DNA of 64,000 nt from IMG/VR virus record IMGVR_UViG_3300046167_000744, positions 1 through 64,000 of that record. One strand, written 5' to 3'. The notes beneath the pieces are model-generated. The model was not told where the DNA came from. It saw only the letters and a list, made by a program, of their open reading frames with translations, and ran no database searches. Each line of letters opens with the position of its first letter. The stretch's first letter is position 1. Below, piece by piece: positions 10,480-56,938 of the stretch. The stretch is from a virus. The position numbers and the translations under genes were made by a program.

Positions 10480-10689
10480 TGCCAAAGTTAGGTCAAAACA
10501 CTGACCGCTCTCCAACATATATAGTTTATCTAGGTGTCTTAGGTAAAGGTATATTACAACTATATATACTCTCTAGCAAGTTTCATTTTTTAGTAAGTTT
10601 GGCATTTAGGTCTTTTTGTGTAGTTAGATCAAGGACTTAGAGTCTGCCACTAGGCTGCCACCTGCCAAGAAGATTCGTGGTTAGAACAC
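10480..10689. other. Origin-like element A (AT-rich core between inverted boxes, IHF site, TGCCA repeats)
   Basis: TGCCAAAGTTA 10480, TATATA-rich core, TAAGTTTGGCA ending 10604, ATCAAGGACTTA 10628-10639, three CTGCCA at 10644-10667. Confidence 0.65.
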
Positions 10690-10881
10690 TAGTGGATAGC
10701 TCACTAGCTCCACTAGCATAGGTTAGAACACTAGTGGATAGCTCACTAGTGGCTCTAGGTTAGTGACACTAGTGGATAGTCCAGTAGCTCACTAGCAAGG
10801 TTAGTGACACTAGTGGATAGCCCACTAGCTCCACTAGCTTTAAGTTAGAACACTAGTGGATAGTCCAGTAGCTCCACTAGT
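10679..10881 (+). repeat. Tandem array A: 5 units of ~37-44 bp
   Basis: Units start at 10679, 10721, 10758, 10799 and 10843; consensus GTTAG(AA/TGA)CACTAGTGGATAGYYCASTAGCTCCACTAG. Confidence 0.95.
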
Positions 10882-10901
10882 CTATCACCAGGTATATAGA
10901 C

Positions 10902-10930
10902 TTGAAGAGCCTCGGTAGATATGATAAGAT
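10902..10930 (+). promoter_or_regulatory. Sigma70-like promoter of the rightward operon
   Basis: TTGAAG-17 nt-TAAGAT with a TGn extension. Confidence 0.5.
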
Positions 10931-10967
10931 ACAAGTATCTTAAACCCATTAACGAAAGAAAAGCAAA

Positions 10968-11204
10968 ATGACAGATGTTCAAATACATTCACTCGTTCTA
11001 TCGCTAGAGATAATCAAGGTCCTTATGGCTGACACTCCAGGGATCTACGCTGATATGGAACACGCCGCACTCACTCATGTATTCAGAGCAGGTGAGCAAC
11101 GTCAACTATCCATGTCTGAACTCACTAACTTGCTAAGATGCACAGCTCAAGAGACAGCTGATAAAATGGCAGCAGTTAGAGTTAGGCTGAATCATGAGAG
11201 CTAA
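10968..11204 (+). CDS. Small hypothetical protein, possibly helix-turn-helix
   Basis: 78 aa, overlaps the nuclease gene start; LSMSELTNLLRCTAQETA. Confidence 0.6.
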   Translation: MTDVQIHSLVLSLEIIKVLMADTPGIYADMEHAALTHVFRAGEQRQLSMSELTNLLRCTAQETADKMAAVRVRLNHES

Positions 11205-12333
11205 ACCAGCTAAACTTAAACACGTCTCAGCATCCTCCATCGGCCTGTTCGATAGATGCCAGACCCGATGGTATTACACCTATCTATTAGGCATGCGTGG
11301 CAAGACTACAGATGCGATGACTAGAGGTAGCCGTGTGCATGAGCAACTTGAGAAGTATCTTAAGGATGGGACCAAGCCTGAAGTGAAGACCACCTCTGGA
11401 CTTATAGCGGCTCAAGGATTGGAGCATATACCTAGCCCGAAGAAGTTTACGAAGAAGGAAAATAAGGTAGAGGCCAGCCTGGCTGAATACCCCGTGCCTA
11501 ACCTACCGATTCCGTTCAAAGGCTTTATCGACTACCTAGTAGTTGACACTGACGACGGTATCATCGAAGTAGGGGATCATAAGACAACCTCTGGCTGGAA
11601 GTGGATCAAGACTGAAGAGGAGTTACGAGAGAATACTCAGCTCGTGATCTACGCTCGCCACGTCTTAGAACACTATCCTGATGCAACTGATATCAGACTG
11701 ACACATGTATACTATCTAACTAGACCGCCTCATAGCTCACGCAAGGTCACGGTAGTTGTGAGTAGACAGCATGTATACGATGAGTTTGATAAGGTTCTAG
11801 CCGCTGCCCATAAGATGATCGAGGCAGCATCCAATACACTTGACCACGCCGACAAAAATAAAGCAGACTGTTTCGCCTACGGCAAACGCTGCACCCAGTA
11901 TGATGAGTGCTGGCACACCATTAACCATACGGAGAAACTACCTATGAGCAATAAGCAAGAAGATATCCTGGCCTTCCTTAGAGGCGAATCGGTCCCACCT
12001 GCACCTGTAGCAGCGGAGCCTGAACCTGTTGTTTCTGAGACTGAGGTTATCAATGAGGCTGTTACTGTATATATAGGGTGTAAACCGCTCTATGGTGAGT
12101 GCAAGTCTCTGATTGATGCGCTCGCACCTCTTATGGCAGAGGTCTGCAGTGATAAGAACGTGAGCCACATCGGGTTCGTTCCATACGCTCAAGGTTGGGA
12201 TATGTTAGCTGCGAAGCTAAGCGCTCAGGGACTTCCCAACGGGGCCTACTATGTGCCTTCGTTCAGTAATGTAGCTCAGCGACTGAGCGACACTCTAGTT
12301 ACAGTAGCTAACCAGGTGGTGATTGCAGGTTAA
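11194..12333 (+). CDS. PD-(D/E)XK exonuclease (RecB/Cas4-like, probable Fe-S)
   Basis: SASSI..FDRC..RW, RGSRVH, FKGFIDYL, VGDHKT, QLVIYA, C-terminal CFAYGKRCTQYDEC. Confidence 0.85.
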   Translation: MRAKPAKLKHVSASSIGLFDRCQTRWYYTYLLGMRGKTTDAMTRGSRVHEQLEKYLKDGTKPEVKTTSGLIAAQGLEHIPSPKKFTKKENKVEASLAEYPVPNLPIPFKGFIDYLVVDTDDGIIEVGDHKTTSGWKWIKTEEELRENTQLVIYARHVLEHYPDATDIRLTHVYYLTRPPHSSRKVTVVVSRQHVYDEFDKVLAAAHKMIEAASNTLDHADKNKADCFAYGKRCTQYDECWHTINHTEKLPMSNKQEDILAFLRGESVPPAPVAAEPEPVVSETEVINEAVTVYIGCKPLYGECKSLIDALAPLMAEVCSDKNVSHIGFVPYAQGWDMLAAKLSAQGLPNGAYYVPSFSNVAQRLSDTLVTVANQVVIAG

Positions 12334-12386
12334 GACCTACTATGTTATACTGTGCTTATACTTATAGACTAAGGAAAGCACGGTAA

Positions 12387-14093
12387 ATGAACGATCAACT
12401 AAAGCATCTCTTCGGAGAAGTAACACCTGAAACAAAAGAGAAGCCTGTAGAGGTATCCGAGCCTGTTAGGATCAAGAGCCTACCTACTTATAACTACACT
12501 CCTGAAGACCTGACGGATCAGCTAAAGACTCCTGAAGGCTTTATGAGCTTAAGACCGCTACAGAATCAGGCGCTCGTTGAGTGTCGTGACGCTAAAGGCG
12601 GAGTCCTACTACTAGGTTGTGGTGTCGGCAAGACACTCGTCTCGTATCTATTGCCAGTAGTTATGAAGGCTAAACAGCCTCTGCTCCTGGTCCCTGCTTC
12701 ACTAGTGGATAAGACTAGAGCTGAGTTCCATAGCTACTCTACCAACTTTAAGATTACGCTACCCACTATATTATCTTATGAGAAGCTATCACGCCGAACC
12801 GCTCAGCAGTTCCTCACACAACTAAAGCCAGACTTAATAATCTGCGATGAGGCTCACCACCTCAAGAGTATGGACTCGACACGCACTTCTCGACTTGGCA
12901 AGTATCTAGTGAATCACCCTAAGTGCAACCTGGTGGTGATGAGCGGAACACTATTTAATAAGAGCGTCGCCGACTTCGCACACCTAGCGGATTGGGCGTT
13001 AGAAGAAGGCTCACCTGTCCCTAATAATCATAGAGACGTAGAGGTGTTCGATCTAGTCCTAACAGGTGAGGCGAATGGATATCAGTATGGCCAGTTTGAG
13101 CCTATGATGGAGTGGGGCCAATCAGCTCGTGAAGCGGTGTATCAACGAATGAAGGCTACTAAAGGCGTGGTGCTTACCACTGACGAAGCCGTGCCTTCAG
13201 CTCTACGCTTGATTAAGATGGAGGGTAAAGTCCCTAAAGAACTCCAGGACGGGATCAATCAATGCTTTGAGTCTGGAGTTATGAGTGAGGTGCTTACAGG
13301 GATGGAGATCGACTTCGATATAAACACCATCAATGCGAGCCAGCATTTGTGGGACGATACAGATCAGTTTGCGTTAAGAGCTTTAGGTCAAATGGTGAGC
13401 GGCTGTCTCTACTTTTGGGAGTGGCCTAATCATACACCTGATGATGAGTGGTTACTTGCTCGTAAAGATTGGCGACGGGCGGTGCGTATTATAAGGGAGA
13501 TGGATCTAGAAGACTACGACTCACCTCATATAATAGAGACTGAGTTCCATCAGTTACCGCCAGATATAGTGAGTGTATTCGAGGGTTCCTACTCCAAGTG
13601 GCAGGCGGTTAAACATCGACCAGCGCCACCTAGAGATAGTGTTTGGGTATCTGATTATATGATTAACTATGTAGCTAACTGGAAAGAAGAGCAGACGCTG
13701 CCGTATATAATATGGGTAGATGGTGTGGAGGTTGGTAATAAGTTGAGCAGTAGATTAAATATACCGTATTATGGAGCAGGGGCGAGCCTCCCTACTATTG
13801 CGGAACCGTGTATTATGTCGATACGATCTCATGGCACTGGTAAGAATCTACAGGCGTGGAGCGTTAATCTAGTATTCGCAGCTCTAGCGGATCCAGCCAC
13901 TTGGGAGCAGATGATTGCTAGAACGCATAGAGCAGGACAGCTCGCTGACGAAGTATTAGTATATACTTTCACTCACTCAATCTTCGGATCTAGTTTTGGT
14001 AAAGCGTATAAGCAGAGCAAAGTTATATCCGACACTACGGGACAGCCGCAGCGTTTAGTTTACGCAGATAAGCTATCCAGGAGATTATCATGA
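12387..14093 (+). CDS. SF2 (SNF2-like) helicase
   Basis: LRPLQ, GCGVGKT, IICDEAHHLK, MSGT, GKNLQ, EQMIARTHRAGQ. Confidence 0.9.
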   Translation: MNDQLKHLFGEVTPETKEKPVEVSEPVRIKSLPTYNYTPEDLTDQLKTPEGFMSLRPLQNQALVECRDAKGGVLLLGCGVGKTLVSYLLPVVMKAKQPLLLVPASLVDKTRAEFHSYSTNFKITLPTILSYEKLSRRTAQQFLTQLKPDLIICDEAHHLKSMDSTRTSRLGKYLVNHPKCNLVVMSGTLFNKSVADFAHLADWALEEGSPVPNNHRDVEVFDLVLTGEANGYQYGQFEPMMEWGQSAREAVYQRMKATKGVVLTTDEAVPSALRLIKMEGKVPKELQDGINQCFESGVMSEVLTGMEIDFDINTINASQHLWDDTDQFALRALGQMVSGCLYFWEWPNHTPDDEWLLARKDWRRAVRIIREMDLEDYDSPHIIETEFHQLPPDIVSVFEGSYSKWQAVKHRPAPPRDSVWVSDYMINYVANWKEEQTLPYIIWVDGVEVGNKLSSRLNIPYYGAGASLPTIAEPCIMSIRSHGTGKNLQAWSVNLVFAALADPATWEQMIARTHRAGQLADEVLVYTFTHSIFGSSFGKAYKQSKVISDTTGQPQRLVYADKLSRRLS

Positions 14094-14749
14094 AAGATTT
14101 AATAGGCGATAAGGTATACGTGCCTGGCGAAGAGCCTATGGAGATAGCTGTTAGCGACTCCGAGGTAATATCTAGTGGTCGGGACCTTCAGGTTATGGTG
14201 CATCACGATATCCTCAGAGGCCTGGATATACCAAATAAAAGAACAGGCGCTCTAGATCCTATAGATAAGGAGCGTTGGTTAGTTGTGGTAGAGACACTGA
14301 TGCAGCGAGGCACTAAGAGTGTATCGCAGCTCCGAGACTATACAGGTCTGACACAACAACGAGCTACCAGGTTTATCCAAGAGGTTCGGGACCGATGGGC
14401 CAACTCCCTAACAATGGGACAGGTTAACTCTAGGCGTGAGCAGCTCTATTTAGAGTGTGAGCGTGTCAAGGAGGAGTGCTGGCGACAGTATCACCTAGTT
14501 GATAGTGAAATGGCTAAGCTAGCCTTTATGAAGATGATTATAGATGCTGGTAAGCGTCAATCGTCCTTGATAGGTGCCGAGCGCATTAACGTCAATGTAG
14601 AGTCTAAGGTGGCAGGCCATAAGACCGCTGAAGAGATGGAGGCTGAAGTAGCTGGCCAACTATCTATATCTGTAGATCAATTTAGCGTGATGGGCGAGAT
14701 GTTATCTAAGCAGATAACCACACTCAGGAAGGATCATAACGATGAGTAA
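14090..14749 (+). CDS. Probable terminase small subunit
   Basis: HTH-like segment plus helical C-terminus; immediately upstream of and overlapping TerL. Confidence 0.55.
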   Translation: MKDLIGDKVYVPGEEPMEIAVSDSEVISSGRDLQVMVHHDILRGLDIPNKRTGALDPIDKERWLVVVETLMQRGTKSVSQLRDYTGLTQQRATRFIQEVRDRWANSLTMGQVNSRREQLYLECERVKEECWRQYHLVDSEMAKLAFMKMIIDAGKRQSSLIGAERINVNVESKVAGHKTAEEMEAEVAGQLSISVDQFSVMGEMLSKQITTLRKDHNDE

Positions 14750-16823: not shown

Positions 16824-19800
16824 ATGGCTATTTTATCAGGTGATGACGCAACCACCAAGGAGCCAGGACTCGTCAGACTTGCTAGGGTCGATGAGACTTT
16901 AGCAGGTGTAAGTGAGTCCATTGCTACCACGCCTCTAGGTGTGGCTTCCTATGTTGCCCAACTTATAGGAGCGGCCCCTGCTGCCCTTAACACTTTACAA
17001 GAGCTAGCTGAAGCTATCCAGGGTGACGACGACTTCTACGTCCGTGTCCAAACCCTAGAGGCTACAGCTACATCACACGGCACACGCCTCACCTCTGCTG
17101 AAGGTGATATCGCAGTATTGCAAGCGGATCTCAATACCGCCGAGTCTAGCATCTCGACTTTACAGTCGGGCGTTAGCGGTAACGATACTGATATCGCTGG
17201 CATCCTAACCAGGTTGACCGCAGCCGAAGGTGATATTGACGACCTGGAAGCACATACCCATATTGATGGTGGGGGATCTAGCACAGCGCTCCAAGATGAG
17301 GTCGATGATATAGAGGCTGGTGTAGGGCTTGCAACTGACGGATCATACGCTTCACGCAGCGGCTCTAACTATATCGACTCAGCCTCATCTATCGCAGGTG
17401 AGATCGGTCTACTCGATACGCAGGTTAAGAGTAACGCAGATGCTATCTCTTCACTTCAATCAGGTGGCTCAGGTAGCTCCGCTAACCAAGACGAAGTTGA
17501 TGATATTGAATCATCAGTCGGGTTAGATGCTGACGGTAACTATGTATCCAGGTCTGGAACTAACTACCTCGATAGCGCCTCATCCATTGTAGGTGAGATC
17601 GGACTACTCGACGCTCAAGCTAAGATTAGCGCTGACGCTATAGCGAGTAACGATAGTGATATCGCATCTATACAGAGCGACGTGAGCGCAGCTCAATCAG
17701 ATATCTCAACGAACGCATCAGGTATAAGCAGTAATAGCTCTGCTATTTCTACACTTAACTCACTAGCTGATTCTCATGAGGCATCTATCGGACTCAGTTC
17801 TGCAGGGGCCTACGTCACGAGATCAGGTAGTAACTACCTCGACAGTGCATCTAGTATTGTAGGTGAGATCAGCGCTCTCGATACGCAGGTTAAGGCCAAT
17901 GCGGATTCAGCAGCAGCTAACTCTAGCGCAATCTCTTCTAACGATAGCGATATCGCTGGCATCCTAACCAGGCTGACAACAGCCGAAGGTGAGATTGACG
18001 CTCTAGAGATTGAAGCTCATGATGATACCCAAGTAGAACTCGACGCTACTCAAGCTGGAGCTGGACTCGATGCTGATGGAGGCTATACCGCCGATGCAAC
18101 TAGTAACTACTTAACCTCTGCCTCTTCACTGAAGGACGCAGACGATAAGCTAGATGCTCAGATCAAGAGTAATGCGGATAGTATCACTAGCCTTCAAAGC
18201 TCGGTATCATCTACTCAAAGCGATTTGGATACAGCTGAAAGTGCGATCACTAGTTTACAAAGCGATGTAGCTGGTAACGATAGCGATATCAGTGGCTTAG
18301 CGGCACGTATGTCAACGGCTGAAGGTGATATCACCCAGCTTGAGACTGACGTTGCAGGTAACGATAGTGATATAGCGACCAACTTGGCAGCTATACAGAG
18401 TAACGATAGTGATATCACGGCGTTGCAGGGGCGCATGTCAACAGCTGAGTCTGATATAGACACAGTAGAGTTGAGCGTTGCAGGTAAAGCTGATGGTAGC
18501 CTGGTGGATACCATTGAGGCATCTATCGGTATTAGTGCGGATGGGACCTTCTCAGCTAACTCCAGCTCTAACTACTTAGGATCTGCATCTAGTGTCCGTG
18601 GTGAGATCAACGCACTCGACACTCAAGCGAAGGCTAATGCTGACTCTATTGATGCAAACGATACGGATATCCTCGCCATACTGACCACGGTCTCAGGGCA
18701 TTCTACTTCAATCGCAGCTAACAGTAGTGCGATCAGCTCTAACGATTCAGATATCGCTACCAACGTAGCTTCCATCTCGACTCTACAGAGTGAAGTAGAT
18801 GCAGCTCAAGTCGGTGCTGGATTAGATTCTGATGGAGGCTATACAGCTGACTCATCTAGCAACTACCTCACGGCAGCCTCTTCACTGAAGGATGCTGACG
18901 ATAAGCTAGACGCTCAGATCAAGAGCCTATCTGATGATATAGACGCTATCACTTCAGGCACTAGCGGATCAGCTTCACTAGCTACCATCCAGGCCGAGGT
19001 CAATGCGACTCAGGCAGGTGCAGGTCTTGATCCCGACGGCGACTATACAGCTGACTCATCTAGTAACTACTTAGCATCAGCTACCTCCTTGCTCGATGCA
19101 GACGATAAGCTAGACGCTCAGATCAAGGTCAACGCAGACGCAATCGCTTCTAACGACTCAGATATCTCAGCTCTTCAAAGCTCTGTATCAGGTAATGATA
19201 GTGATATCAGTAGTTTACAAAGTTCTGTAGCGAGTAACTCTAGTGCGGTCTCCTCTAACGATAGTGATATCGCTAACCTCCAGGCGCTCGCCAATACGCA
19301 CGAAGCCTCTATAGGTCTAGAGGCTGACGGTTCCTTAGCTGCGTTTACGAACAAGCCTATCATCGCATCTGATACATCTATCAGAGCAGCGGTCGAAGGC
19401 ATTGTAGATTATGTAGGTGAAGCATCTATTTCAGGGACGCTATCGGCCAACCTGGTAACTGCTCAAGCAAGCATCAGCACTAACGCAACTAACATCAGTG
19501 GTAACGACTCAGATATCTCAGCGCTCCAAGCGTCAATGTCTGCAGCCGAGTCTGATATTGATGATCTTGAGACCTTAACAGTCTCTCACACATCAAGCAT
19601 CGCATCGAATGCGGCTAACATCGCATCAAACGATACTGATATAGCGGCTAACCTAGCGTCAATACAGAGTAACGACACTGATATAGCTTCTAACCTAGCG
19701 GCGATCCAGGGTAACGATAGCGATATTGCTGGACTATTGACCCGTATGAATACTGCAGAGTCAAACATAGGCTCTAATGATACGGATATATCTAACATCA

Positions 19801-20822
19801 ATACCAGCGTAGCTACTGCTGAGTCGGATATAGATGATCTTGAGACGCTGACAGCCTCTCATACATCTAGCCTCGCCTCTAACGCTAGTAGCATATCGAG
19901 TCTCTCATCTACGCAGAGTAGTCACGCTTCCACGCTCACGAGCTTGCAGAATCAGATCGACGGGAATGATAGCGATATCAGCACCAACGCAAGTAGCATC
20001 TCTTCTAATGCGAGTAACATCAGTTCAAACGATACTGATATAACTAACTTGCAATCAGAGCTAGACGCTACTCAAAGCGGAGCTGGTCTTTCTGCAGCTG
20101 GGGCCTATCAAGCTGATAGCGGAGCTAACTACATCGCTAGTGCGACTAGCCTTGCTGATGCTGATGATAAACTCGATGCTGCTATTGCAGCTAGAGCTTC
20201 AGCTATCACTGGCTTAGACACTCGACTCTCAGCTGCTGAGTCTACAGTATCAGGTCACACTTCAACCTTATCGTCTCAAGCCTCTAGTATCAGCACCATT
20301 GAGAGTGATCTTAATACAGCTGAGAGCGCTATCGCTACACTAGAGAGCGAAATGGATGCTGTCGAATCTACTAATGTATCGCAGGCATCTACCCTCACTT
20401 CGCATGGCAGCCGTTTAACGTCCTTAGAGTCTAACGACAGCACTCAAGACAGCAGCATTACTAGCCTTGGATCTCGTGTAACCACACTTGAAAACACCAC
20501 TGGTAGTAATACAGCGATCACAGCACTTCAAGGTAGAATGACTACCGCCGAAGGTGATATAGATGATCTTGAGACTCTAACCGCCTCTCACACTACCGAT
20601 ATAGCTATTGCTAATGCACGGCAAGGTGGTATTTGGCATCAGGACACTAATACGGTAGTATACAAATCCAGTGGCTTCACCGTCCGACAATCTTATGGTG
20701 CCTGGGGGTATGAACCGTCTACGAATGATTTCGTATTCATCGCACCCGAAGGCGGCCCTGGTGATCGTCACTGGAATTACGAAGGATCAACTGGTTCAAT
20801 CATTTTCACAGGAGTATCATAA
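16824..20822 (+). CDS. Long coiled-coil fibre protein (1332 aa)
   Basis: Fibre-type N-terminus (ATTKEPGLVRLA; GAAPAALNTLQELAEAI), long IxxNDxDI heptads and about 9 GLxxxGxY..SNYL..ASS....LDxQ modules. Confidence 0.8.
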   Translation: MAILSGDDATTKEPGLVRLARVDETLAGVSESIATTPLGVASYVAQLIGAAPAALNTLQELAEAIQGDDDFYVRVQTLEATATSHGTRLTSAEGDIAVLQADLNTAESSISTLQSGVSGNDTDIAGILTRLTAAEGDIDDLEAHTHIDGGGSSTALQDEVDDIEAGVGLATDGSYASRSGSNYIDSASSIAGEIGLLDTQVKSNADAISSLQSGGSGSSANQDEVDDIESSVGLDADGNYVSRSGTNYLDSASSIVGEIGLLDAQAKISADAIASNDSDIASIQSDVSAAQSDISTNASGISSNSSAISTLNSLADSHEASIGLSSAGAYVTRSGSNYLDSASSIVGEISALDTQVKANADSAAANSSAISSNDSDIAGILTRLTTAEGEIDALEIEAHDDTQVELDATQAGAGLDADGGYTADATSNYLTSASSLKDADDKLDAQIKSNADSITSLQSSVSSTQSDLDTAESAITSLQSDVAGNDSDISGLAARMSTAEGDITQLETDVAGNDSDIATNLAAIQSNDSDITALQGRMSTAESDIDTVELSVAGKADGSLVDTIEASIGISADGTFSANSSSNYLGSASSVRGEINALDTQAKANADSIDANDTDILAILTTVSGHSTSIAANSSAISSNDSDIATNVASISTLQSEVDAAQVGAGLDSDGGYTADSSSNYLTAASSLKDADDKLDAQIKSLSDDIDAITSGTSGSASLATIQAEVNATQAGAGLDPDGDYTADSSSNYLASATSLLDADDKLDAQIKVNADAIASNDSDISALQSSVSGNDSDISSLQSSVASNSSAVSSNDSDIANLQALANTHEASIGLEADGSLAAFTNKPIIASDTSIRAAVEGIVDYVGEASISGTLSANLVTAQASISTNATNISGNDSDISALQASMSAAESDIDDLETLTVSHTSSIASNAANIASNDTDIAANLASIQSNDTDIASNLAAIQGNDSDIAGLLTRMNTAESNIGSNDTDISNINTSVATAESDIDDLETLTASHTSSLASNASSISSLSSTQSSHASTLTSLQNQIDGNDSDISTNASSISSNASNISSNDTDITNLQSELDATQSGAGLSAAGAYQADSGANYIASATSLADADDKLDAAIAARASAITGLDTRLSAAESTVSGHTSTLSSQASSISTIESDLNTAESAIATLESEMDAVESTNVSQASTLTSHGSRLTSLESNDSTQDSSITSLGSRVTTLENTTGSNTAITALQGRMTTAEGDIDDLETLTASHTTDIAIANARQGGIWHQDTNTVVYKSSGFTVRQSYGAWGYEPSTNDFVFIAPEGGPGDRHWNYEGSTGSIIFTGVS

Positions 20823-23800
20823 TGGCTTCAGTCAGACCCGAATCCAATAACACCCACACTCTAGGAACGTCTACTTATAAGTGGGCCACCCTACATAGTG
20901 TGGATGTTCAGGCCGCTACCATCACAACATCAGGCGATGTTGAAATCGGTGGCAATCTTACCGTCAGCGGAACTCAAACCGTTCTTGACGTAACCACCGT
21001 AAGTGTTGAAGATCCATTGCTTCAGCTCGCTAAATCCAACTCAGCTGACAGCGTTGATATCGGCTTCTATGGTCAAATCGTTGACGGGTCTACTACTGAG
21101 TATGTTGGACTCTACCGAGATGCTAGTGATGGTAAGTTTAAGTTATTTGAGAGCGCTTCAGCAGCACCTACCTCTACCGTAAGCGGTGGATCTACCGCCA
21201 CTCTCGTGGCTAACGTAGAAGGTGCCGTCACTGGTAACGCCGACACTGCAACCTCTGCAGCAGCTCTTACAACTGCACGAACTCTCAGCATCAGCGGCGA
21301 CGCATCAGGCTCTGTATCCTTCGATGGATCAGCTGATGCAGATATCGCTATCACTGTAGGTTCTGGAGCTATTGAAAACTCAATGCTCGACAATAGCTCA
21401 ATCACCTTTACCGACGGATCTAACTCAGAGGCTCTTGCACTCGGTGCGACTCTTGAGATCGGCGGAACCTCTGGTGAAGTTGAAGTAGCCTACTCATCGG
21501 CAGCTAATAAGTTTACCGTAGGGCTTCCTGACGATGTTAATATCGCAGGCGACCTCGTAGTATCTGGTATTATCTCAGGAACCGTTCAAGCTAACTCAAG
21601 CACAGCTACTAAGTTAGCTACTGCCCGTAACATCGCACTTGGTGGTGATCTTGCAGGCTCTGCTAGTTTTGATGGGTCTGCTGACGTGAGCATCACGGCT
21701 ACCATCCAGGCAGGTAGTGTCGATAACGCTATGCTCGCTAACGATGGAATTAGCCTCAAGCTAGCTGGTGTTGCTCAAGAAGATATTAACCTCGGTGATG
21801 ATCTTAACTTCGCAGGGCACTAGCAACGAAGTAGAGATCGCCTATGATGCATCTACTAACTCACTTACTTTCGGACTACCTAGTAGCATTACTGCTGCGC
21901 TCGTAGGGAATGCTTCAACAGCATCCGCTTGGGCTAACGCTAGAACAATCTCACTTGGTGGGGATCTTGGCGGATCAGTAAGCATTGACGGATCAGCAGA
22001 TGCGACTCTCACTGCGACTATCCAAGCTGGCTCTGTAGAAAACTCAATGCTGGACAACAGCAGCCTCACTGTTAGCGATGGATCTAATACATCAGCGGTC
22101 GCTCTTGGTGGCACGTTAACTATCGCTGGAACTGCAAATGAGGTTGCGGTAGCTCACTCTTCAGGCGTGACTACCATCGGCCTTCCAAGTAGCATCAGTG
22201 GTCTTACTGCTGTATCTGCTGACGATTTTGTAGGCGACCTCACGGGTAAGGCTGATACAGCTGACGCTCTTGCGACTGCACGGACCCTAAGTATCTCTGG
22301 TGATGCTACAGGATCTGCTAGCTTCGATGGATCTGCAAACGCAGCTATCGCCCTAACCATTGCGGCTGGAGCGGTAGATAACGCTATGCTCGCAAATGAT
22401 GGGATCGGCCTTAAGCTCGCAGGCGTAGCTCAAGAAGACATCAATCTTGGTGATGATCTTAACTTCGCTGGAACAGCTAGTGAAGTCGATATCGCATACG
22501 CATCAGGTAGTAACACGCTTACATTCAGCCTCCCTTCAACTATCAACGCAGCGACTACCGCAAACGCAGCTACATCATCAGCATGGGCCAGCGCTCGCAC
22601 CGTATCTCTCGGTGGTGACCTCGGTGGATCAGTAAGTATTGATGGATCAGCGGATGCGACTCTCAACGCTACTATTCAAAGCAGCTCTGTAGAAAACAGT
22701 ATGCTCGCTAACTCAGGGATCACCATCCAGGACGACAACGCTCAAGCAGCCTCAGTCGCTCTCGGTGGATCTCTTCGATTCAGTGAGGTAGCTAACGAGA
22801 CTACAGTCAACTTCGATTCGTCTGCTGGCTCTATCACTATCGGACTTCCTGATAACATTACAGCTGACGTAACAGGTAATGCTGACTCTGCATCGGCTCT
22901 TGAGACTGCACGAACCATCGCACTTAGCGGTGACGTAACAGGCACAGGCTCTTTCGATGGATCAGCTAACCTCACAATAGCAACTACTTTAGCAGGTGGC
23001 ACGGCGCTCACCTTCGCTGACGGTGACTCAAACTCTGAAGCTCTAGCTTTGGGATCGACTATCACCTTTGAAGGCACTAGTAATGAAGTTGATGTTGCGT
23101 ATGGAGCAGGCTCCAATACATTCACTATTGGACTACCTGATACTATCGCTGCGGAACTCACAGGTAATGCATCTACTGCAACTGCCCTGGCTACAGCTCG
23201 CACCATTGCTCTTAGTGGCGATGTTACAGGTTCGGGTTCGTTTGATGGTAGTGGCAACCTCACCATCGCTTCTACTTTGGCTGGTGGCACTGCTCTTACC
23301 TTTACTGATGGATCTAACTCAGAGGCTCTGGCTCTCGGTTCGACTCTTGAAGTCGGAGGCACCGCTAACGAGGTAGAGGTCGCATACAGCACAGCGGCTA
23401 ATAAGTTTACAGTTGGTCTTCCTGATGATGTAAACATCGCAGGTGATCTCGTAGTCTCTGGAACTATTTCAGGAACCGTAGCGGCTAACTCAAGCACTGC
23501 TACTAAACTAGCTACAGCTCGCACCATCTCACTCGCTGGTGACCTTGGAGGCTCAGTGAGCTTCGATGGATCAGCTGATGTTAGCCTCACTAGCACGATC
23601 CAGGCAGGTAGCGTTGATAACTCAATGCTAGCTAATGATCATATCGGCCTTAAGCTCGGTGGTGTAGCTCAAGAGGATATCGCACTCGGTGATGATCTCG
23701 ACTTTGTTGCAGGTCAGGACCTAGACGTAGCTTATAACGCTAGCACTAACGCTCTTACATTCAGCCTTGAGTCTGAGATTGATAGTGATACTACTGGTAA

Positions 23801-25517
23801 CGCAGCAACCGCTTCCGCACTTGAGACCGCACGAACTCTCAGCATCACTGGTGACGCTACAGGTTCAGCTAGTTTCGATGGGTCAGCTAATGCGGCTATC
23901 GCATTGACCATCGCTGCAGGTGCTGTAGACAACGCCATGTTAGCTAATGATGGAATCAGCTTGAAGCTCGGCGGTGTTGCTCAAGAAGATATCAACCTCG
24001 GTGATGATCTTAACTTTGCAGGGACCGCTAGTGAAGTGGAGATCGCTTATGCTTCTGGAAGTAACACTCTTACTTTCGGACTCCCTGATACTATCGCTGC
24101 AGAGCTTACAGGTAACTCAAGCACTGCTACTAAACTAGCTACAGCTAGAGCTATCTCAGTGAGTGGAGACGCTTCAGGAACCGTTAACTTCGATGGGTCA
24201 GCTGACGCAGATATCGCATTGACTATCGCTTCGGGCGCTGTCGATAACGCTATGCTTGCTAACGATGGATTTAGCCTTCTCGTGGATAGCGTGAGCCAAG
24301 AGGATATCAACCTCGGTGACTCACTCAACTTCATCAGTGGTCAAGATATTGATATCGCTTACAACACTACATCTAACCAACTCAGTATTGCTCTTGAAGG
24401 CACTATTGATAGCGATACTACTGGTAACGCAGCGACTGCTTCAGCATGGGCAAACTCACGCACAATCAGTCTAGGCGGTGACCTTGGAGGCTCAGTTGCT
24501 CTTAACGGATCTGCTGATGCAACTCTCACGGCTACTATCCAGTCTAACTCAGTAGAAAACAGCATGCTGGCTAACAGTGGCGTAACACTAGCAGCTGACT
24601 CAGGTTCAAACGATCCTATAGCTCTTGGTGAGACACTCACTATCTCAGGAACCTCTAACGAGATCGAGACTGCTGCCGCTGGTAGTAATCAGATCACTAT
24701 CGGACTTCCTAATAACGTCACTATCGGTAATAACCTCACCGTAACCAACGACTTAGCGGTATCTTCAGGTGATCTTGAGATTACTGACGGGACACTCTCT
24801 ATCCTCGGTGGTGGAGCTACTATCAACGGAACCGTAGCGATCAACGGAACGCATACCATCAACGGTAGCCTTATCGCTAACTCTGCAACTATGAAGTTTG
24901 AAGACAGCCTCCTTGAGCTAGGTTACACTAACTCAAGCGTTGTCGATCACGGTTTCTTCAGCAAGCATAGCGACGGCGATTACGTCGGTGTAGCTTATGA
25001 TCAGTCAGCTGCTGAGTTTGCGATGTTCAAGACAGGCACCAAGCCTGGAGCGACAGTAGACACTGGTGCTGGTGATTATGAGCTTGCTGATATGCGAGCG
25101 AAGAACATTGCTGCTAACGGTAGCTTGCTCGTGAGCGGTTCCGTTATCAACAACTCTTCAAAGGGTATGTTCGAGAAGCTCAGCTTCGCCTCTGTTACTG
25201 GAGCTAACACCACTCTATCAGGCTCTCAGATGGTCGGTGGTGTGATTCTTCGTGATGCGAGCAACGATGAGACTGATGCAACCGCTACAGCGGCTCAGAT
25301 CGTAGCTGCGATGCCTAGCTCTGCTAGACTTGCAGATATGACTTTCGTGATGCGCTTCATCGTCTCAGGAACTAGCGCTGGATATAGCTTCACAGCTGGA
25401 TCTGGTGTGACTATTGTTGGAGGGTCTTCTTACATGACAGACAAGACTCACTCGTATCTCGTGCGTGTTACTAACGCTACGGGATCTAGTGAAGCGGTCA
25501 CCATGTATAAGCTCTAA
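20822..25517 (+). CDS. Long repetitive fibre protein (~1560 aa), split by one extra G at ~21815
   Basis: 11 repeats of ARTIxLxGDxxGSxSFDGSAD. Internal copies read LNFAGTASEVEIA, so ORFs 20822-21823 and 21768-25517 join into one gene. Confidence 0.85.
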
Positions 25518-26418: not shown

Positions 26419-26672
26419 ACGCATTAGCTGGAGGGGCCGCTATCATAGGCTTCCTCTATACCTACATTAAGGACCGTTACGAAAACGGTAAGATCATAGG
26501 TAAGCTAGAAGAGCGTGTAGCTAATCTCGAAAGAGGTAATGAAATACTTGATCAACTCACGAATACGCTCACTGAGACTCGTTTGGCAGTTGCTAGGTTG
26601 GAGCAAAAAGTGGATAGTATCTCTACTTGGGTGCAGCAACAGCAGCAGCAAACACCATTACGCAGAGAATAG
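26400..26672 (+). CDS. Small single-TM coiled-coil protein (holin/XhlA-like)
   Basis: MESITINALAGGAAIIGFLYTY with GGAGG upstream; LAVARLEQKVD. Confidence 0.55.
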   Translation: MESITINALAGGAAIIGFLYTYIKDRYENGKIIGKLEERVANLERGNEILDQLTNTLTETRLAVARLEQKVDSISTWVQQQQQQTPLRRE

Positions 26673-26682
26673 GAGCGGATAT

Positions 26683-27378
26683 ATGGATTCGTCAGTTGAC
26701 TTATATAATGATGGTATTGGAATCGTCACTCTCATTGATTACATGGGAGATGATAAACGAGCGCTACATGCGGCTCGTGTCTCTTTCTTAAGAGACGAAG
26801 ATCTATTAGTAGACGACGGTGAGCGTCTCGATCCTAAAGATAAGAAGTTAGCTAAGTTCTTATTGAAGCATCAGCACACCTCACCATTTGAGCATAGCTC
26901 ACTTAGTTTTAGAATTAAGGTGCCTCTATTCATTCGTAGCCAAATAATGCGTCACCGCACGTTCAGCTATAATGAGGTGAGTCGCAGGTATACAGATTCG
27001 TGTATCGAGTTCCATATACCTAAAGAGCTACGCAAACAGTCTGAGAAGAATCTACAATGCAGCGTAGATGAGGTTGTGTTTAATAATGATAAGCTGGTTA
27101 AGGCTATGCGTAACCAGGCTGATTCTGCATTTAAAACCTATCAGATGTTTCTCGACTGTGGAGTATGCAGAGAGCAGGCTCGTGCAGTCCTACCTCAGAA
27201 TATGTATACGACTTTCTATATGACAGGTAACCTCCTCAACTGGATCAAGTTTTTGAAGTTACGGTTAGACGAACACGCTCAGCCAGAGGTGCAGGAGCTG
27301 GGAGTAGCTATTCTATCTATGATGGAAGAGGTATTCCCTGACACTGTAGCTATCTTGAAGGAGCTAGATATACTATGA
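26683..27378 (+). CDS. thyX: Flavin-dependent thymidylate synthase
   Basis: AARVS, HTSPFEH, RHRTFSYNEVSRRY, EQARAVLP, HAQPE; start at 26683 after AGGAG. Confidence 0.96.
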   Translation: MDSSVDLYNDGIGIVTLIDYMGDDKRALHAARVSFLRDEDLLVDDGERLDPKDKKLAKFLLKHQHTSPFEHSSLSFRIKVPLFIRSQIMRHRTFSYNEVSRRYTDSCIEFHIPKELRKQSEKNLQCSVDEVVFNNDKLVKAMRNQADSAFKTYQMFLDCGVCREQARAVLPQNMYTTFYMTGNLLNWIKFLKLRLDEHAQPEVQELGVAILSMMEEVFPDTVAILKELDIL

Positions 27379-27920
27379 AGATCAAGCACTTAGCTCATCG
27401 CATCAAGACCTGCTTATCACTAGCCTCCCTTTCACCCTGTAAGCGGCGGCAGTTCGGCTGCGTGGTTATAGACCCTATCGCTAATATTATACTTAGTGAG
27501 GGATATAACGGCAGCCTTCGTGGATCGACTCAGTTATGCGGTGGATCTAAGTGTGATCGAGAGGGGTTGAAGCCAGGCACTACTTATGAGGTAGGCTGTG
27601 TCCATGCCGAGCAGAACGCTGTATATAATGCAGCTCGTATCGGTAACTCGCTAGTAGGTTCCTGGTTTATCATAAATGGTGAGCCTTGCAGCTTATGCGC
27701 TAAAGCAATCGTTCAGGTAGGTGCTACAAAGGTTATTTGTGTATCGGGAGTGTTCGGACAACTAGACGGCGTTGAGATACTTCAAGACGCTGGAGTAGAG
27801 GTTGTTTTAGTAGAGCCTGATATGAGTGGTCTAGAGCTAGCTCTGCATCAGCCTATGCGATTACCTCGTGTCCGTGAGCAGAAAATACCTAGCAGTCCCT
27901 TTTCTAAGCAGACTACCTAA
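27375..27920 (+). CDS. dCMP deaminase
   Basis: SPCKRRQFGC, GYNG, HAEQNA, PCSLC. Confidence 0.93.
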   Translation: MKIKHLAHRIKTCLSLASLSPCKRRQFGCVVIDPIANIILSEGYNGSLRGSTQLCGGSKCDREGLKPGTTYEVGCVHAEQNAVYNAARIGNSLVGSWFIINGEPCSLCAKAIVQVGATKVICVSGVFGQLDGVEILQDAGVEVVLVEPDMSGLELALHQPMRLPRVREQKIPSSPFSKQTT

Positions 27921-29414: not shown

Positions 29415-30871
29415 ATGCCTAATCAATCAAAGACATTTAATGTGCCACAGGCTGTCCGTGATGCTGCCGAGCGTGGCTTAGAACTGCGTCGTAAACACGG
29501 TCGAGGCTGGTCTTGATGCTAAGCAAGCTAAGAAAGAAGGAGTAGGCTCTGGTGTTCCAGCGAGCCTCTAATCTTATGCAAGGCACCGTCTCTTACAAAA
29601 CTGTTAAGCGTATGTTAGCCTTCTTCAATAGACATAAGGCGTTTAAAGAGCATCATAGCGATAAGACGAGTGCTGCTTGGATCTCACATATGCTATGGGG
29701 CGGCAATCCAGGTTATGCGTGGGCTAAACGCATTGTGAAGCAGGAGGAGAAAGTCGAGAAGGGTAGCTTCCTAGCTGCTCACTACTTCGGTGACGACTTC
29801 CCTGATGAGGAGCTTGAGGAGGAGGCTCAGCCTATCGGTGGTTTTGCGGAGTTACTTAAAGCCGCTCGCAGACCTAAAGACTTTATGGATATCGAGGGCA
29901 GGAAACGTATTAAAGCTAAAGCTGGTGACGAGACTGATGTTGTCGCTAGTGATGTAAAGCCTGTCGATGCTCCTAAAGACGCTATACCTGCTGAAGACGA
30001 GCCGCCTAGTAGTAAAGAACTCGATGAGGCCCTTAAGGAGTTCGGTGAGGAATCTGACGACGAGGTAGAGAAGGGTGTAGTGGTTATAGATCTAGTCGGT
30101 GACGACGATGAGCTACCTGATACAGAGCCAGCGGCCCCTGTGCCTCCACCTCAAGTTCCTATGCCTATACCTCCTGAGCCGATGCTCCAAGAGATAGACT
30201 TCGTGCCTGACGTGATCGTGACTCCCTATGATCAAGTTAAGATGAAGAAGATAGCTAAGAAAGGCCGAGCTATCTATGGCGTTGACAGGGTAGCTAAGAA
30301 GCAGGGACTCTATATATGTAGAGGTCAGTGGGACAATGTTGACCTAGATCTAGTTCAGGGCTATCTATCATTTATAGATGAGCCTGGTATGAAGAAGAAT
30401 GCGCTCGCTGTAGGTGGCGAAGCCATGCTCGCTGTGATTGAAAAGGCTGAGCCTAAAGTCCCTGCTAAATATTTAGAGGGATTGACAGGGCAGGAGCGTC
30501 AGAAGCGTAAGCGTGAGATACAGCGTCGGATGAAGGATAAGCAGAGCTATAAAGAGCTGCCAGGTGATAAGGACGCTAAAACTAAACCTAGTAAGTATAC
30601 CCGTAGTAGCTTCGCAGCTAAGGTTCGTGAAGAGATTAAGAAGCCTGGTAAAGATGAGTTCTTACGGGCGGCAGCTAAAGTGAGTGGTATAAGCAAGACG
30701 ATACTAGAGGAGTGTTATGATCGTGGCTTGAAGGCTTGGTCGTCAGGAGGTCACCGACCAGGGGCCTCACCTGCTGCGTGGGCTAGAGCTAGAGTCTACT
30801 CCCTGGCTACAGGAGGCAAGACACGAAGCACCGCTGATAAAGACTTATGGGAGAGACATAAGAGAGGCTAG
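29415..30871 (+). CDS. Multi-domain head-associated protein with DUF5824-like C-terminus (two indels near 29508 and 29557)
   Basis: VRDAAERGLELRRKHGRG...VKRMLAFFNRH...LWGGNPG domain; C-terminal YDRGLKAWSSGGHRPGASPAAWARARVYS. Confidence 0.7.
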
Positions 30872-30875
30872 TGCG

Positions 30876-31038
30876 ACTAGTGAGCTATCCACTAGTGTTC
30901 TAACTTAAAGCTAGTGGAGCTAGTGGGCTATCCACTAGTGTTCTAACCTAAAGTTAGTGGAGCTACTGGACTATCCACTAGTGTTCTAACATGGGAATTG
31001 CTAGTGGAGCTACTGGACTATCCACTAGTGTCACTAGT
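30876..31038 (-). repeat. Tandem array B: 4 units, inverted relative to array A
   Basis: CTATCCACTAGTGT occurs four times; 30885-30941 is the exact reverse complement of 10807-10863. Confidence 0.95.
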
Positions 31039-31335
31039 AACTTTGGCATTCTAGTGGCAGGGTCTAACCTTATGATATAGTTAGCCTATTCGGGCAGAAT
31101 GCCAAAGTTACCCGAAAACTAAGGATGCCCTGGAGTATATATATATTCTACCCTATTTATATTTATACATACTTATATATATATGTTTCTCTGGAACTCT
31201 TTAAAAATAGGTAACTTTGGCATTTTGGTCTTTTTCCGTATACATATCACAGGCTTAAGCCCTGCCACCTGTCTGCCACTTGCCAAGAAGATTCGTGGTT
31301 AGAACACATTTGTTGCTCACTAGCTAGGTTAGTGG
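31037..31335. other. Origin-like element B
   Basis: GTAACTTTGGCATTCT...AGAATGCCAAAGTTAC inverted pair; core 31100-31222; IHF-like sites ~31066-31078 and 31246-31258; TGCCAAGAAGATTCGTGGTTAGAACAC (31281-31307) identical to 10663-10689. Confidence 0.65.
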
Positions 31336-31404
31336 TATACTAAATTGACTCTAGCACTATGGTAGTCCCTACAGACTACCCACCATCTATTAGTAGGAGG
31401 ATAC

Positions 31405-50498: not shown

Positions 50499-50500
50499 TC

Positions 50501-52066: not shown

Positions 52067-52076
52067 GGATAGACCG

Positions 52077-53618: not shown

Positions 53619-53628
53619 GGAGGCTATC

Positions 53629-54528: not shown

Positions 54529-55363
54529 AATAGAGACGATGCTGAGAGAGACTTATACTCAGCTCGCTAAAGGTCAAGAGCTTAACCGTGTATCGGAGTT
54601 CTTCGGTTTTAGACGACCTCAGTATATTGAGGAAGACTACTGGCGCTCAGCTCTTAATGTAGCTCTGTTTAGCTCTCGTGGCACACCTGGTCCCATCTTT
54701 AGATTCCTAGAGGAAGTGTTCGGTGAGTGGGTAGATGGGATCAGCACCTACTCAGCGGTGGCTATCTCGCCTAACATTATGCAGTTCAGTGGCGTATCCT
54801 GCGCTCACGAAGGTCGCTACGTCAGAATCAATGGCGATCTTTACAGATCCTCAACACTCCGAGGCTCTTCACATCCTAATGATATAGTGTTCCACGCTGT
54901 AGACACTATGATGTTTAAGAAAGCAGCCTTTACACCTGGCGCTGCCTATACTCTCAAGTTCCTGCCCTTCGATATTGAGGAGCATGGCTGCGAGTATCGC
55001 ATCTTGATCGACAGCGGCATACTCAACTTCCCTAAATACTACGTCCCTACCAACGTGGCTGAAGATAGAGCTGGAGGTATACCGCTCAGCGGCCATATCA
55101 TGAACTTCTTCTCTACGGTGCTTGGTGAGCGTTACGGTAATCAAGAAGAGGGGGCCTATCCCATCTACCTGGCGGCTGAAGAGTTCCAGGAGCTTTTCTT
55201 CGACGCTATAGATATGATGCTAGCTGCTGGTGTGCATGAGCGCATCCTGGTCACTACCTGGTGCCAAAGTGAGGCTAGTATCTACGGTAGTATCTTCAAC
55301 CGTAAAGTCTATGGCAGCACAACACCTGCTAAACCCGATATCATTCAACCGTCAAGGAGTTAA
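54509..55363 (+). CDS. Baseplate wedge (gpI-like) protein
   Basis: AKGQELNRVSEFFGFRRP...RGT pattern. Confidence 0.55.
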   Translation: MLQPLNRIETMLRETYTQLAKGQELNRVSEFFGFRRPQYIEEDYWRSALNVALFSSRGTPGPIFRFLEEVFGEWVDGISTYSAVAISPNIMQFSGVSCAHEGRYVRINGDLYRSSTLRGSSHPNDIVFHAVDTMMFKKAAFTPGAAYTLKFLPFDIEEHGCEYRILIDSGILNFPKYYVPTNVAEDRAGGIPLSGHIMNFFSTVLGERYGNQEEGAYPIYLAAEEFQELFFDAIDMMLAAGVHERILVTTWCQSEASIYGSIFNRKVYGSTTPAKPDIIQPSRS

Positions 55364-55365
55364 TC

Positions 55366-55734
55366 ATGGAACCCGAAGTAGTTAAAGTCGTAACCGAGAT
55401 TAAAGATCTTCAAGTCCATAACGGACACTACTATATTGTGTTGGTAGCTAGCATCATCAGCTTCGCTATTACTTATATAGTTAAGCCGTTCGTGAAGAAG
55501 AAGTTTACCGATAAAGAGATGGCTAGCTCAGTCACTAGAGCTTTTGCAGTTGTTACTGGCGCTATCGTCGGCTACTCACTAGAGTTCCAGATTATTGATC
55601 TGTGGCTAGGTGCCGCAGCTGGTGGAGTCAACGCATTCATCGTCAAGATGCTCAAGAAGAAAGCTAACGCTCACTTAGGTGTGTCTGAGTCTGCTGAGTC
55701 TAAAGAAGGCTCTAAGGACGACTCTAAAGGCTGA
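55366..55734 (+). CDS. Holin-like 3-TM protein
   Basis: Three hydrophobic segments and a charged C-terminus at the end of the tail operon. Confidence 0.55.
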   Translation: MEPEVVKVVTEIKDLQVHNGHYYIVLVASIISFAITYIVKPFVKKKFTDKEMASSVTRAFAVVTGAIVGYSLEFQIIDLWLGAAAGGVNAFIVKMLKKKANAHLGVSESAESKEGSKDDSKG

Positions 55735-56069
55735 ACACTTGAGTAGGATCGAAGCATACCTTTGATCTCGCCTAAGTCTACCAGCATCTCGGTCGCCATT
55801 TCGTTCATAGCGTTGAGGTCTTCGTTGATACGGCGGTGGGTCTCTTCACGGGCAGTGACAGCCTCGCTCAGTTCCTTTGTGATTGTGTCTTTACAGGCTT
55901 GAGCTGTAGACGGTGTAGGGAAGGCAAAGCTGAACATAGATACTAGATTCGCCACGAGAGAGATGCAGACGAAGCGGCCCATGAGGTCGTGGTTCTTCTT
56001 GAAGTATTCGTCAACGGCCATGAAGAGGAACACGAAACTTACGGATAGTGCGATATATGATACGGTCAC
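55671..56069 (-). CDS. Two-TM membrane protein with coiled coil
   Basis: GTG at 56069 after AAGGAG; own promoter TTGCTG-17-TATACT at 56135-56107. Confidence 0.6.
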   Translation of the reverse strand: MTVSYIALSVSFVFLFMAVDEYFKKNHDLMGRFVCISLVANLVSMFSFAFPTPSTAQACKDTITKELSEAVTAREETHRRINEDLNAMNEMATEMLVDLGEIKGMLRSYSSVQPLESSLEPSLDSADSDTPK

Positions 56070-56151
56070 GATGAGTCTCCTTGAGTTATTAGGGTGTGTA
56101 TAGTAAAGTATAGCATCCCACATAAACTACAGCAAACTTTGGAGCAGAGTT

Positions 56152-56577
56152 ATGACAGATAAATATGAGAAGGTGAATGAGCCTCAACACTATCAGGGCA
56201 AGGACGGTATGACCGTTATGCAGATCATCCAGGCTTACGAGTGCAACTTCGCAGTCGGTAACGTGATTAAATACATGCTTAGAGCTGGCAAGAAGCCTGC
56301 CGAGGATGCCCTGGTCGATTTGAATAAGGCCCTTAAATACCTTGAGTTTGAGATTACTGAAAGAACACCTATCGAGAAGCGTGTTATCGGAGCTAACCTA
56401 CGCAGCACTCCTGAGAGCCTAAAGGGTTATGAGGAGATGGGTAGATATCACGCTGCGAGCTATACACCTGCCGAGGCTGATCCCTCGTTCGGTAATCCGC
56501 ATCTAGTCTTCAGAGATGAGTCGGAGCCTGTGCGTTCAATCATCGATTTGAGCGAGTTAGTAGACCATGAAGACTAG
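56152..56577 (+). CDS. DUF3310 (SaV-like) protein
   Basis: VNEPQHY, FAVGNVIKYMLRAGKK, DLNKALKYL. Confidence 0.85.
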   Translation: MTDKYEKVNEPQHYQGKDGMTVMQIIQAYECNFAVGNVIKYMLRAGKKPAEDALVDLNKALKYLEFEITERTPIEKRVIGANLRSTPESLKGYEEMGRYHAASYTPAEADPSFGNPHLVFRDESEPVRSIIDLSELVDHED

Positions 56578-56652
56578 AGCCACTACTGGACTATCCACTA
56601 GTGTTCTAACTTATGCTAGTGGAGCTAGTGGGCTATCCACTAGTGTTCTAAC
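56575..56652 (-). repeat. Tandem array C: 2 units (a further unit at ~56907-56938)
   Basis: 56615-56652 is identical to 30910-30947 (38 bp). Confidence 0.93.
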
Positions 56653-56656
56653 GGCA

Positions 56657-56938
56657 AATCTTTCTGGCAGGTGGCAGCCTGCTGGCAGGCCCTTTTCCTC
56701 AACAAGATCAAGAGCTTAGCCTACCAAATGCCAAAGTTACCTATTTTAAAAGAGTCTGGATCAACATATATATCTATAAGTATACTATATACAGATACAC
56801 CTATAATATATATGTATCGGCGTAGACTCTCGAAAAACACAAGTTTGGCAGAATCTTCAAAAACTGCTATGTTATCAACACTTTACACCATGCCACTTAG
56901 TTAGATGAGCTACTGGACTATCCACTAGCGTCACTAGC
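56657..56938. other. Origin-like element C
   Basis: TGGCAG x3 56665-56688; ATCAAGAGCTTA 56707-56718; TGCCAAAGTTAC 56729; AT core; AAGTTTGGCA ending 56850; TATCAACACTTTA 56873-56885; TGCCAC 56891. Confidence 0.65.

Follow-up and report, generated by a model that had tools for sequence, protein, structure and literature searches.

A mirror-symmetric, origin-like module at four places in the genome of an uncultured marine myovirus

The Rep proteins of staphylococcal pathogenicity islands (SaPIs) are self-loading helicases of superfamily 3 (SF3) or superfamily 6 (SF6) that also act as initiators; a winged-helix domain at the C terminus lets them recognize iterons of five or six nucleotides, and in their origins an AT-rich centre is bordered on either side by two or more iterons, the two sides being in opposite orientation (PMC9371898). 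Among tailed phages, T4 has at least five origins, which have no motif in common and no dedicated initiator protein (PMC3016281). Here we describe a non-coding module that combines short inverted boxes, an AT-rich core and flanking repeats, and that occurs four times in a 74,372-bp virus contig (IMG/VR record IMGVR_UViG_3300046167_000744). The window analysed is bases 1-64,000 of this contig, and genome-wide counts use the full 74 kb. A first-pass annotation of the window had described the same layout at three loci, with spans of 125 bp (10480-10604), 123 bp (31100-31222) and 122 bp (56729-56850), and had proposed that these are three origins. All three spans were recovered, and a genome-wide scan raised the number of copies to four: A (10480-10880), B (30865-31340), C (56571-56938) and, beyond the window, D (genome 66290-66730).

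When the eight half-elements were aligned, with the core centre as the starting point of each, the module proved to be mirror-symmetric, a full element being two half-elements placed back to back. Every half-core contains a (TA)n run with TATACT or TATGTT at its end. The inner box, TAA(C/G)TTTGGCA, lies 21-26 nt outward of the end of this run and is followed in most arms, 23 bp farther out, by a motif resembling the binding site of integration host factor (IHF). Beyond it come one to three TGCCA(C) pentamers in the orientation opposite to that of the inner box, the first starting 45-46 bp from the inner pentamer and the next at steps of 11 and 7 bp, and then one to five units of 41-47 bp (mostly 42-43) built around the palindrome CTAGTG-N7-CACTAG. 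The AT-rich core measures about 100 bp, and the inverted inner TGCCA pentamers on its two sides are 117-121 bp apart. There are two kinds of arm, the long one being the right arm of A and B and the left arm of C and D, and the arms are mosaics common to several copies: B-left and D-right share a perfect inverted identity of 68 bp (31082-31149 with 66574-66641), and A and C match over 120 nt at 88%. The first-pass annotation had held that the core sequences differ. They are indeed not identical, but neither are they unrelated, as the common ends of the half-cores and the B/D identity show.

On the circle, the copies stand at 10.5, 31.2, 56.8 and 66.6 kb. Element A has a right arm only, as previously noted, with pentamers at 10480 (rightward), 10600 (leftward) and 10645, 10656 and 10663 (rightward), that is, one on the left and four on the right. 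Its core (10491-10593) carries outward (TA)n runs with TATGTT on the minus strand and TATACT on the plus strand; its IHF-like site, GATCAAGGACTTA (10627-10639, plus strand), has one mismatch and lies 23 bp from the inner box; and its five units (10679-10880, plus strand) are 41-43 bp long, each with CTAGTG-N7-CA(C/G)TAG. Elements B, C and D have both arms and are mirror-symmetric, with two to four pentamers per side. In B, which has four units on the left, the pentamers are at 31044 and 31055 (leftward) and 31100 (rightward) before the core and at 31218 (leftward) and 31263, 31274 and 31281 (rightward) after it, and the IHF-like sites are at 31065 (minus strand) and 31245 (plus strand). C is inverted relative to A and B; its pentamers stand at 56665, 56672 and 56683 (leftward), 56729 (rightward) and, past the core, 56846 (leftward) and 56891 (rightward). 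D (6291-6731 of L001, the stretch that holds it) is a fourth complete copy, with pentamers at 66435, 66442 and 66453 (leftward), 66498 (rightward) and, past the core, 66619 (leftward) and 66664 and 66675 (rightward).

These sequences are strongly concentrated in the elements. The word TGCCAAAGTTA occurs exactly six times in the 74 kb, always within an element (about 0.04 expected by chance). TGCCA was found 25 times in the 1.7 kb of elements, compared with 2.2 expected from the rest of the genome, and CCACTAG 33 times, compared with 0.24. The candidate IHF sites of the first-pass annotation proved to be near-consensus matches at a fixed position: WATCAANNNNTTR was matched with at most one mismatch in six of seven arms (0.43 expected), in five of them 23 bp from the inner box. 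One of the six, at 56873 in C, is perfect, the only such match as had been stated, and five have one mismatch; because the arms are paralogues, this enrichment does not represent seven independent events. Nearest-neighbour energies make the four cores the least stable DNA of the genome at window sizes of both 60 and 100 bp, where they occupy ranks one to four, with B first and A fourth.

The candidate initiator is a VapE-like SF3 ATPase, the phage primase-helicase (6646-9789, minus strand; 1047 aa), which carries the PF05272 VapE-like domain (5e-30). The Protein Data Bank yielded a single sequence match, the DNA-bound SaPI1 Rep1 structure 7PDS, which aligns over the ATPase domain with E = 5e-15. 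Residues ~830-900 (7090-7302, minus strand) have a predicted winged-helix fold. In an AlphaFold2 model of residues 500-920, built from a shallow alignment of seven sequences and with an overall predicted local distance difference test (pLDDT) score of 56, this stretch scored 74-88 and had the topology helix, strand, helix, helix, strand, strand (H-b-H-H-b-b); Foldseek returned mostly winged-helix proteins together with 7PDS, all weak matches with E values above 0.01. The stretch varies between lineages, differing in a descriptive comparison between those that have different boxes. Element A lies 690 bp upstream of the primase-helicase gene with one gene between them, and B, C and D are 10-25 kb away.

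The system resembles SaPI origins and those of phage-inducible chromosomal islands (PICIs) in several respects: a homologous SF3 helicase initiator, iterons of 5-6 nt oppositely oriented around an AT-rich centre and a specificity that differs by lineage (PMC9371898). The tentatively predicted C-terminal winged-helix domain, if it is the reader, would be a further likeness. In contrast to the single origin directly downstream of rep in those elements, there are four copies here, upstream of the operon or distant from it. Each divides its iterons between an inner and an outer set, 45 bp from one another with an IHF-like site between them, and arrays of palindromic, operator-like units are added.

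We propose that the four elements are helicase-loading origins of the SaPI Rep kind and that A is also the promoter and operator of the replication operon, a reading to which we assign a probability of roughly 45%. In the mechanism that we infer, which comprises binding, bending, melting and origin firing, each element would be a loading site for the phage's own self-loading SF3 helicase of the SaPI Rep/PriRep type, whose C-terminal winged-helix domain would read the TGCCA pentamers. One inner pentamer per side points at the (TA)n-rich core of about 100 bp, and the one to three outer pentamers, reversed and 45 bp farther out, would be folded back onto the inner box by a bend at the IHF-like site midway; two helicase assemblies would then face each other across the most meltable DNA in the genome. 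Element A would in addition supply the replication-operon promoter, its inner box serving as operator, and the CTAGTG-N7-CACTAG units would be operators of a second, dimeric protein that couples the modules to neighbouring promoters.

Related phages carry the module too. Fragments of their genomes, 30-70% complete, were retrieved with the terminase large subunit (TerL), a 183-aa protein encoded next to A and the primase-helicase as queries, and the comparison covers A-type and B-type sites. Gene order is kept in the relatives that were mapped. An A-type module stands beside the primase-helicase operon in eight of eight distinct relatives (G1, comprising L003/L020; G3; G4; G5; G6; L018; L021; L022), down to a primase-helicase identity of 29%, and a B-type module stands between the portal module and the head genes in G1, G2 and G4, each time with that genome's own boxes. 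This occupancy of the same two syntenic sites extends to relatives with a TerL identity of only 71%.

Box sequence varies by lineage, including GACCA, TTCCA, GGGAGGGYAGGGA and TGAACACA, and is uniform inside one genome. At the A-type site, L017/L021 and L018 have boxes as here (TGCCAAAGTT(A/G) and TAAGTTTGGCA) and three TGCCAC/TGCCAG pentamers, with CTAG units that differ in sequence. G1 has GGTCAAATGGTC and three GACCAC boxes, and its counterpart of the IHF-like site of A, TATCAAGGCTTTA, matches the consensus perfectly. The boxes are TGTGGCA and TGCCAC in G6 (L025), TTGGAAGA and TCTTCCA in L022, TGGCG and TGCCA in G3 (L005) and inverted copies of GGGAGGGTAGGGA in G4 (L006). In G5 (L028, G005:C1:9311-9416; primase 29% identical), TGAACACA is followed by an AT-rich core of ~90 bp and then by TGTGTTCA, boxes that are similar to TGTTCACC, the type I iteron of phage P4. 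Spacing is kept as well, at 118-119 bp from inner to inner box in L018 and L021 and at 45-46 bp from inner to outer box in G1, G6, L018, L021 and L022, with outer steps of 11 and 7-8 bp. This combination of fixed spacing and position with lineage-specific boxes suggests that the phage encodes a sequence-specific binding protein and that this protein and all copies of the module co-evolve; boxes that are uniform within a genome and different between genomes are what co-evolution with one such binder would be expected to produce.

The same comparison bears on whether the modules might be repeats akin to miniature inverted-repeat transposable elements, or sequences that mark recombination boundaries between gene modules, and serve the phage life cycle in no way themselves. 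The mosaic arms, including the 68-bp B/D identity, and the terminal inverted boxes would fit such an account. We nevertheless consider it very unlikely, because retention of the syntenic sites and the spacing while the boxes were replaced argues for selection on function and against a recently spread mobile repeat. An exact-match scan of IMG/VR for the box pair gave only one dissimilar locus, and a scan for a 20-nt word of the CTAG unit gave no match, both of which weigh against mobility. The dissimilar locus (L002; IMGVR_UViG_3300046002_005598, 1227-1357, on an unrelated 172-kb viral contig) has the same 11-bp inverted box pair, 109 bp apart, without an AT-rich core or arrays and is probably a chance match.

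The elements are also surrounded by transcription signals. The left inner box of A abuts gene 9917-10468, the first of the leftward replication operon, with 11 bp between the box and the gene's ribosome-binding site, so the core of A must hold the promoter of that operon. Canonical promoters stand just beyond A-right, B-right and D-left. The one outside A (TTGAAG-17-TAAGAT, plus strand; promoter 10897-10930 within 10897-10942) is of the sigma-70 type and overlaps the perfect palindrome TAAGATA-N4-TATCTTA; it is kept in the four closer relatives aligned, L022 having its own version, TTGACA-18-TAAGAT. A sigma-70-like promoter read from the sequence before the head genes (TTGCTC-17-TATACT with TG upstream; 31313-31341, plus strand) overlaps a degenerate CACTAG/TTAGTG unit. 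The ordinary intergenic promoters form a class of their own, with AAATAAA-(C)TTGC(A/T), 17 nt and TATAGT or a similar hexamer; sites of this early-promoter class, with TATAGT or TATTAT as the -10, were seen at 2040-2100, 2200-2260 and 57770-57830 of the window and at ~68200 and ~72200 of the genome.

The palindrome CTAGTG-N7-CACTAG recurs once outside the elements, at 72344, beside an early-type promoter. Because this copy and the half-sites at 31313 adjoin promoters, we read the CTAG units as operators of a second protein and not as iterons. The surrounding fifth locus (genome 72124-72386) has several further CCACTAG/TTAGTG words and lacks pentamers and an AT-rich core. The origin logic of the first-pass annotation is qualified on this point and by the promoters beside the elements and the -10-like motifs in their cores, and gains support from the Rep1-homologous helicase, the least stable cores and the retention of the module beside the primase-helicase operon down to 29% identity.

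Such signals raise the question of whether the elements are transcription hubs. On this account each core would hold back-to-back promoters without a -35 element, and a phage protein bound to the inverted inner boxes, about 11 helical turns apart, would loop the core in a repressosome of the GalR type; the outer boxes and the IHF-like bend would stabilize the complex, and the CTAG operators would form a second layer of control or a block to read-through. The position of the left box of A is as this account would have it. The -10-like TATACT/TATGTT hexamers point outward in all eight half-cores and in relatives, TATACT is the -10 of a good canonical promoter just outside the elements, before the ribonucleotide reductase (RNR) gene (TTTACA-17-TATACT), the box centres are 111-115 bp apart, near the gal operator spacing of about 114 bp, and B, C and D are located at gene-module boundaries. 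However, we found no -35 element for the half-core hexamers, and a scan with the sigma-70 consensus gave no excess over shuffled sequence. The canonical promoters already present outside the elements imply that the modules are not needed merely as promoters; transcripts started in B-left, C-left and D-right would run into the 3' ends of genes in antisense direction; and no dedicated regulator was found, the sole predicted sequence reader near the elements being the winged-helix domain of the helicase. The hub account is the main rival to helicase-loading origins and is in our estimate rather unlikely. The two readings are not exclusive, and a transcriptional role is a live rival to origin function or a function held in common with it. 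The half-core hexamers may act as promoters that depend on an additional factor or that activate the origin, or they may just belong to the region that unwinds; T4 oriF and oriG have origin-activating promoters (PMC3016281).

Several other identities for these signals were rejected. The sequence TAACTTTG fits the -7 box TAnnTTTG of Bacteroidota promoters, which was ruled out by a Shine-Dalgarno motif in 64 of 88 called genes. TGGCA as the -24 element of a sigma-54 promoter has no -12 TTGC with it, and the downstream sequence is not conserved. The inner box would serve as a -35 element in C-right only. As DnaA boxes, CTATCCACT in the units (with TATCCAC) agrees at seven of nine positions, and the L021 counterpart is TTATCCACT, but L018, G1 and G2 do not retain this likeness.

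If an initiator binds all four elements, it might still fire only one of them. A, or the repeat-rich D, would then be the origin, and the others would be sites like crr of P4, or handcuffing or titration sites that govern initiation or helicase supply. P4 needs ori and, at a distance of 4.5 kb, a further iteron cluster called crr, and its primase-helicase binds the two of them; here, A alone adjoins the replication operon. D lies in a 2.5-kb gene-poor zone with further repeat arrays. This arrangement seems improbable, given on the other side that B, C and D have a complete AT-rich core and both arms and are more complete than A, and that a plain titration site does not need the least stable DNA of the genome.

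The zone around D (genome 66051-68426) has its arrays at L001 6052-6204, 6813-6868, 6987-7018 and 8343-8427. They comprise 54-55-bp units repeated 2.8 times, 16-bp units repeated three times with the DnaA-box-like ATATCCAC, CTCGCCA repeated 4.6 times and GCCCCTC repeated 4.9 times; three terminator-like hairpins stand on the minus strand at L001 6268-6352.

The elements might also be centromere-like or genome-organizing sites, comparable to the sopC-type sites dispersed in N15 or to P1 parS, which contains an IHF site; the ~43-bp repeat period and the box-flanked bend are reminiscent of F sopC and P1 parS. We give it very little weight: no ParA, ParB, ParM, SopA/SopB or integrase was present among the ~65 proteins scanned, a set that excluded some small open reading frames (ORFs), the gene content is that of a lytic myovirus, and an AT-rich core is foreign to known centromeres.

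Several observations weigh against helicase-loading origins as well. Cumulative GC and AT skews, of which the former had been suggested as a check by the first-pass annotation, reach their extremes mostly where the coding strand switches, and four origins do not stand out in them. SaPI origins lie directly downstream of rep, whereas A is upstream of its operon and B to D are 10-25 kb off. The winged-helix prediction comes from the shallow alignment and the Foldseek matches described above, and G3 retains TGCCA-like boxes despite a very different domain, so the co-variation of domain and boxes is descriptive only. The outward -10-like hexamer in each half-core fits a purely transcriptional role too, and IHF may be lacking in the host.

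Comparison with other described systems places the modules further. P4 is similar in that its primase-helicase is the initiator and its iteron clusters occur at more than one place in the genome; it differs in having two clusters of octamer iterons, of which crr is not known to have an AT-rich unwinding core, in contrast to the four equivalent symmetric modules here. Origins of the pSC101/R6K type have direct iterons of 17-22 bp, a RepA-type initiator and DnaA boxes nearby, and Pfam and PHROG scans found no RepA-type protein. Herpes simplex oriS has an (AT)n centre and inverted boxes for a helicase-type origin-binding protein, with several copies of oriS/oriL per genome, and the dispersed homologous regions of baculoviruses are both origins and enhancers; these viruses and their proteins are unrelated to the phage, and the likeness is one of analogy only. 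In GalR-type loops, AT-rich promoters lie between two operators spaced ~114 bp from each other, and looping is aided by an architectural protein, but no regulator of the LacI/GalR type was found here, and gal is not known to have outer boxes or arrays. T4 (oriA-oriG) is alike as a tailed phage with several origins, the known ones consisting of a promoter and an AT-rich unwinding element and several lying, as A does here, at switches of the transcribed strand, but unlike in that one composite architecture is common to all copies here (PMC3016281).

Two genes flank A. The first gene of the leftward operon (9917-10468, minus strand; 183 aa), which starts 11 bp from the left box of A, encodes a protein with no Pfam or PHROG family, an AlphaFold2 pLDDT of 62 and no usable fold from Foldseek or the ESM Atlas, and was set aside as a box binder. 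The first gene of the rightward operon (10968-11204, plus strand) encodes 78 aa whose C-terminal half looks helix-turn-helix-like by eye, with no family match; with the promoter and palindrome at 10897-10942 it probably forms a Cro-like autoregulated switch. That segment and its syntenic sites in L018, L020, L021 and L022 are the most conserved non-coding block of the region.

The phage is an uncultured marine myovirus with gene content of the lytic type, including TerL, portal, protease, major capsid protein (MCP), sheath and baseplate. Its replication and nucleotide genes encode a family-A polymerase, the VapE-like primase-helicase, an exonuclease, a helicase, RNR, thymidylate synthase, dCMP deaminase and PhoH. 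At the DNA level it resembles none of the deposited or cultured phages, and protein identity to cultured phages is 23-29% (at most 29% for MCP, TerL and primase). The plus strand is coding between 10.9 and 61.3 kb, and the minus strand over the remainder, which starts at ~61.7 kb, crosses the contig ends and stops at 10.47 kb. When the two ends are joined, an open frame of 763 aa on the minus strand spans the junction (genome 72721-74372 plus 1-1629), so the contig is probably a circularly permuted circle; pieces of the DNA polymerase are present at both ends, and the gene may still be split into two or three ORFs. Rfam families had no match in the window or in L001, and L001 has no tRNA. A thymidylate-synthase homologue, dCMP deaminase and nucleotide kinase are encoded at window 26539-27920 and 56152-56577, and CTAG is commoner than expected (425 against 289), which together hint that a base is modified or that restriction pressure is unusual. 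Two very large proteins (1332 and 1249 aa; window 16824-25517), with many diverged internal repeats and kept in relatives, are probably fibres.

The first-pass annotation had not recognized this arrangement from a described tailed phage; T4 shows that tailed phages with several origins were already known (PMC3016281). The novelty here is that a single composite architecture, apparently specific to one initiator, is present in several copies and has been kept within a clade. Should all four modules fire, the phage would to our knowledge be the first tailed phage with several origins that share one defined architecture and one dedicated initiator. Tentatively, and at odds clearly below even, we suggest that the uncultured marine myoviruses of this clade start replication at four near-identical origin modules, which co-evolve and are served by one PriRep-type helicase-initiator, each tied to neighbouring promoters through a second operator system. 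Such a set would be a bacteriophage counterpart of the baculovirus homologous regions or the herpesvirus oriS/oriL sets. It would also offer a tractable system for studying how a self-loading SF3 helicase chooses among equivalent origins, how origin firing is coupled to transcription units and how an initiator co-evolves with multiple origins while boxes change and the 45-bp and ~118-bp spacings stay fixed. If the elements are instead transcription hubs, they would constitute an unusual looped promoter-control system common to the whole phage clade. The conserved spacing provides a search rule for origins of VapE/PriRep-type helicases in phages, satellites and islands.

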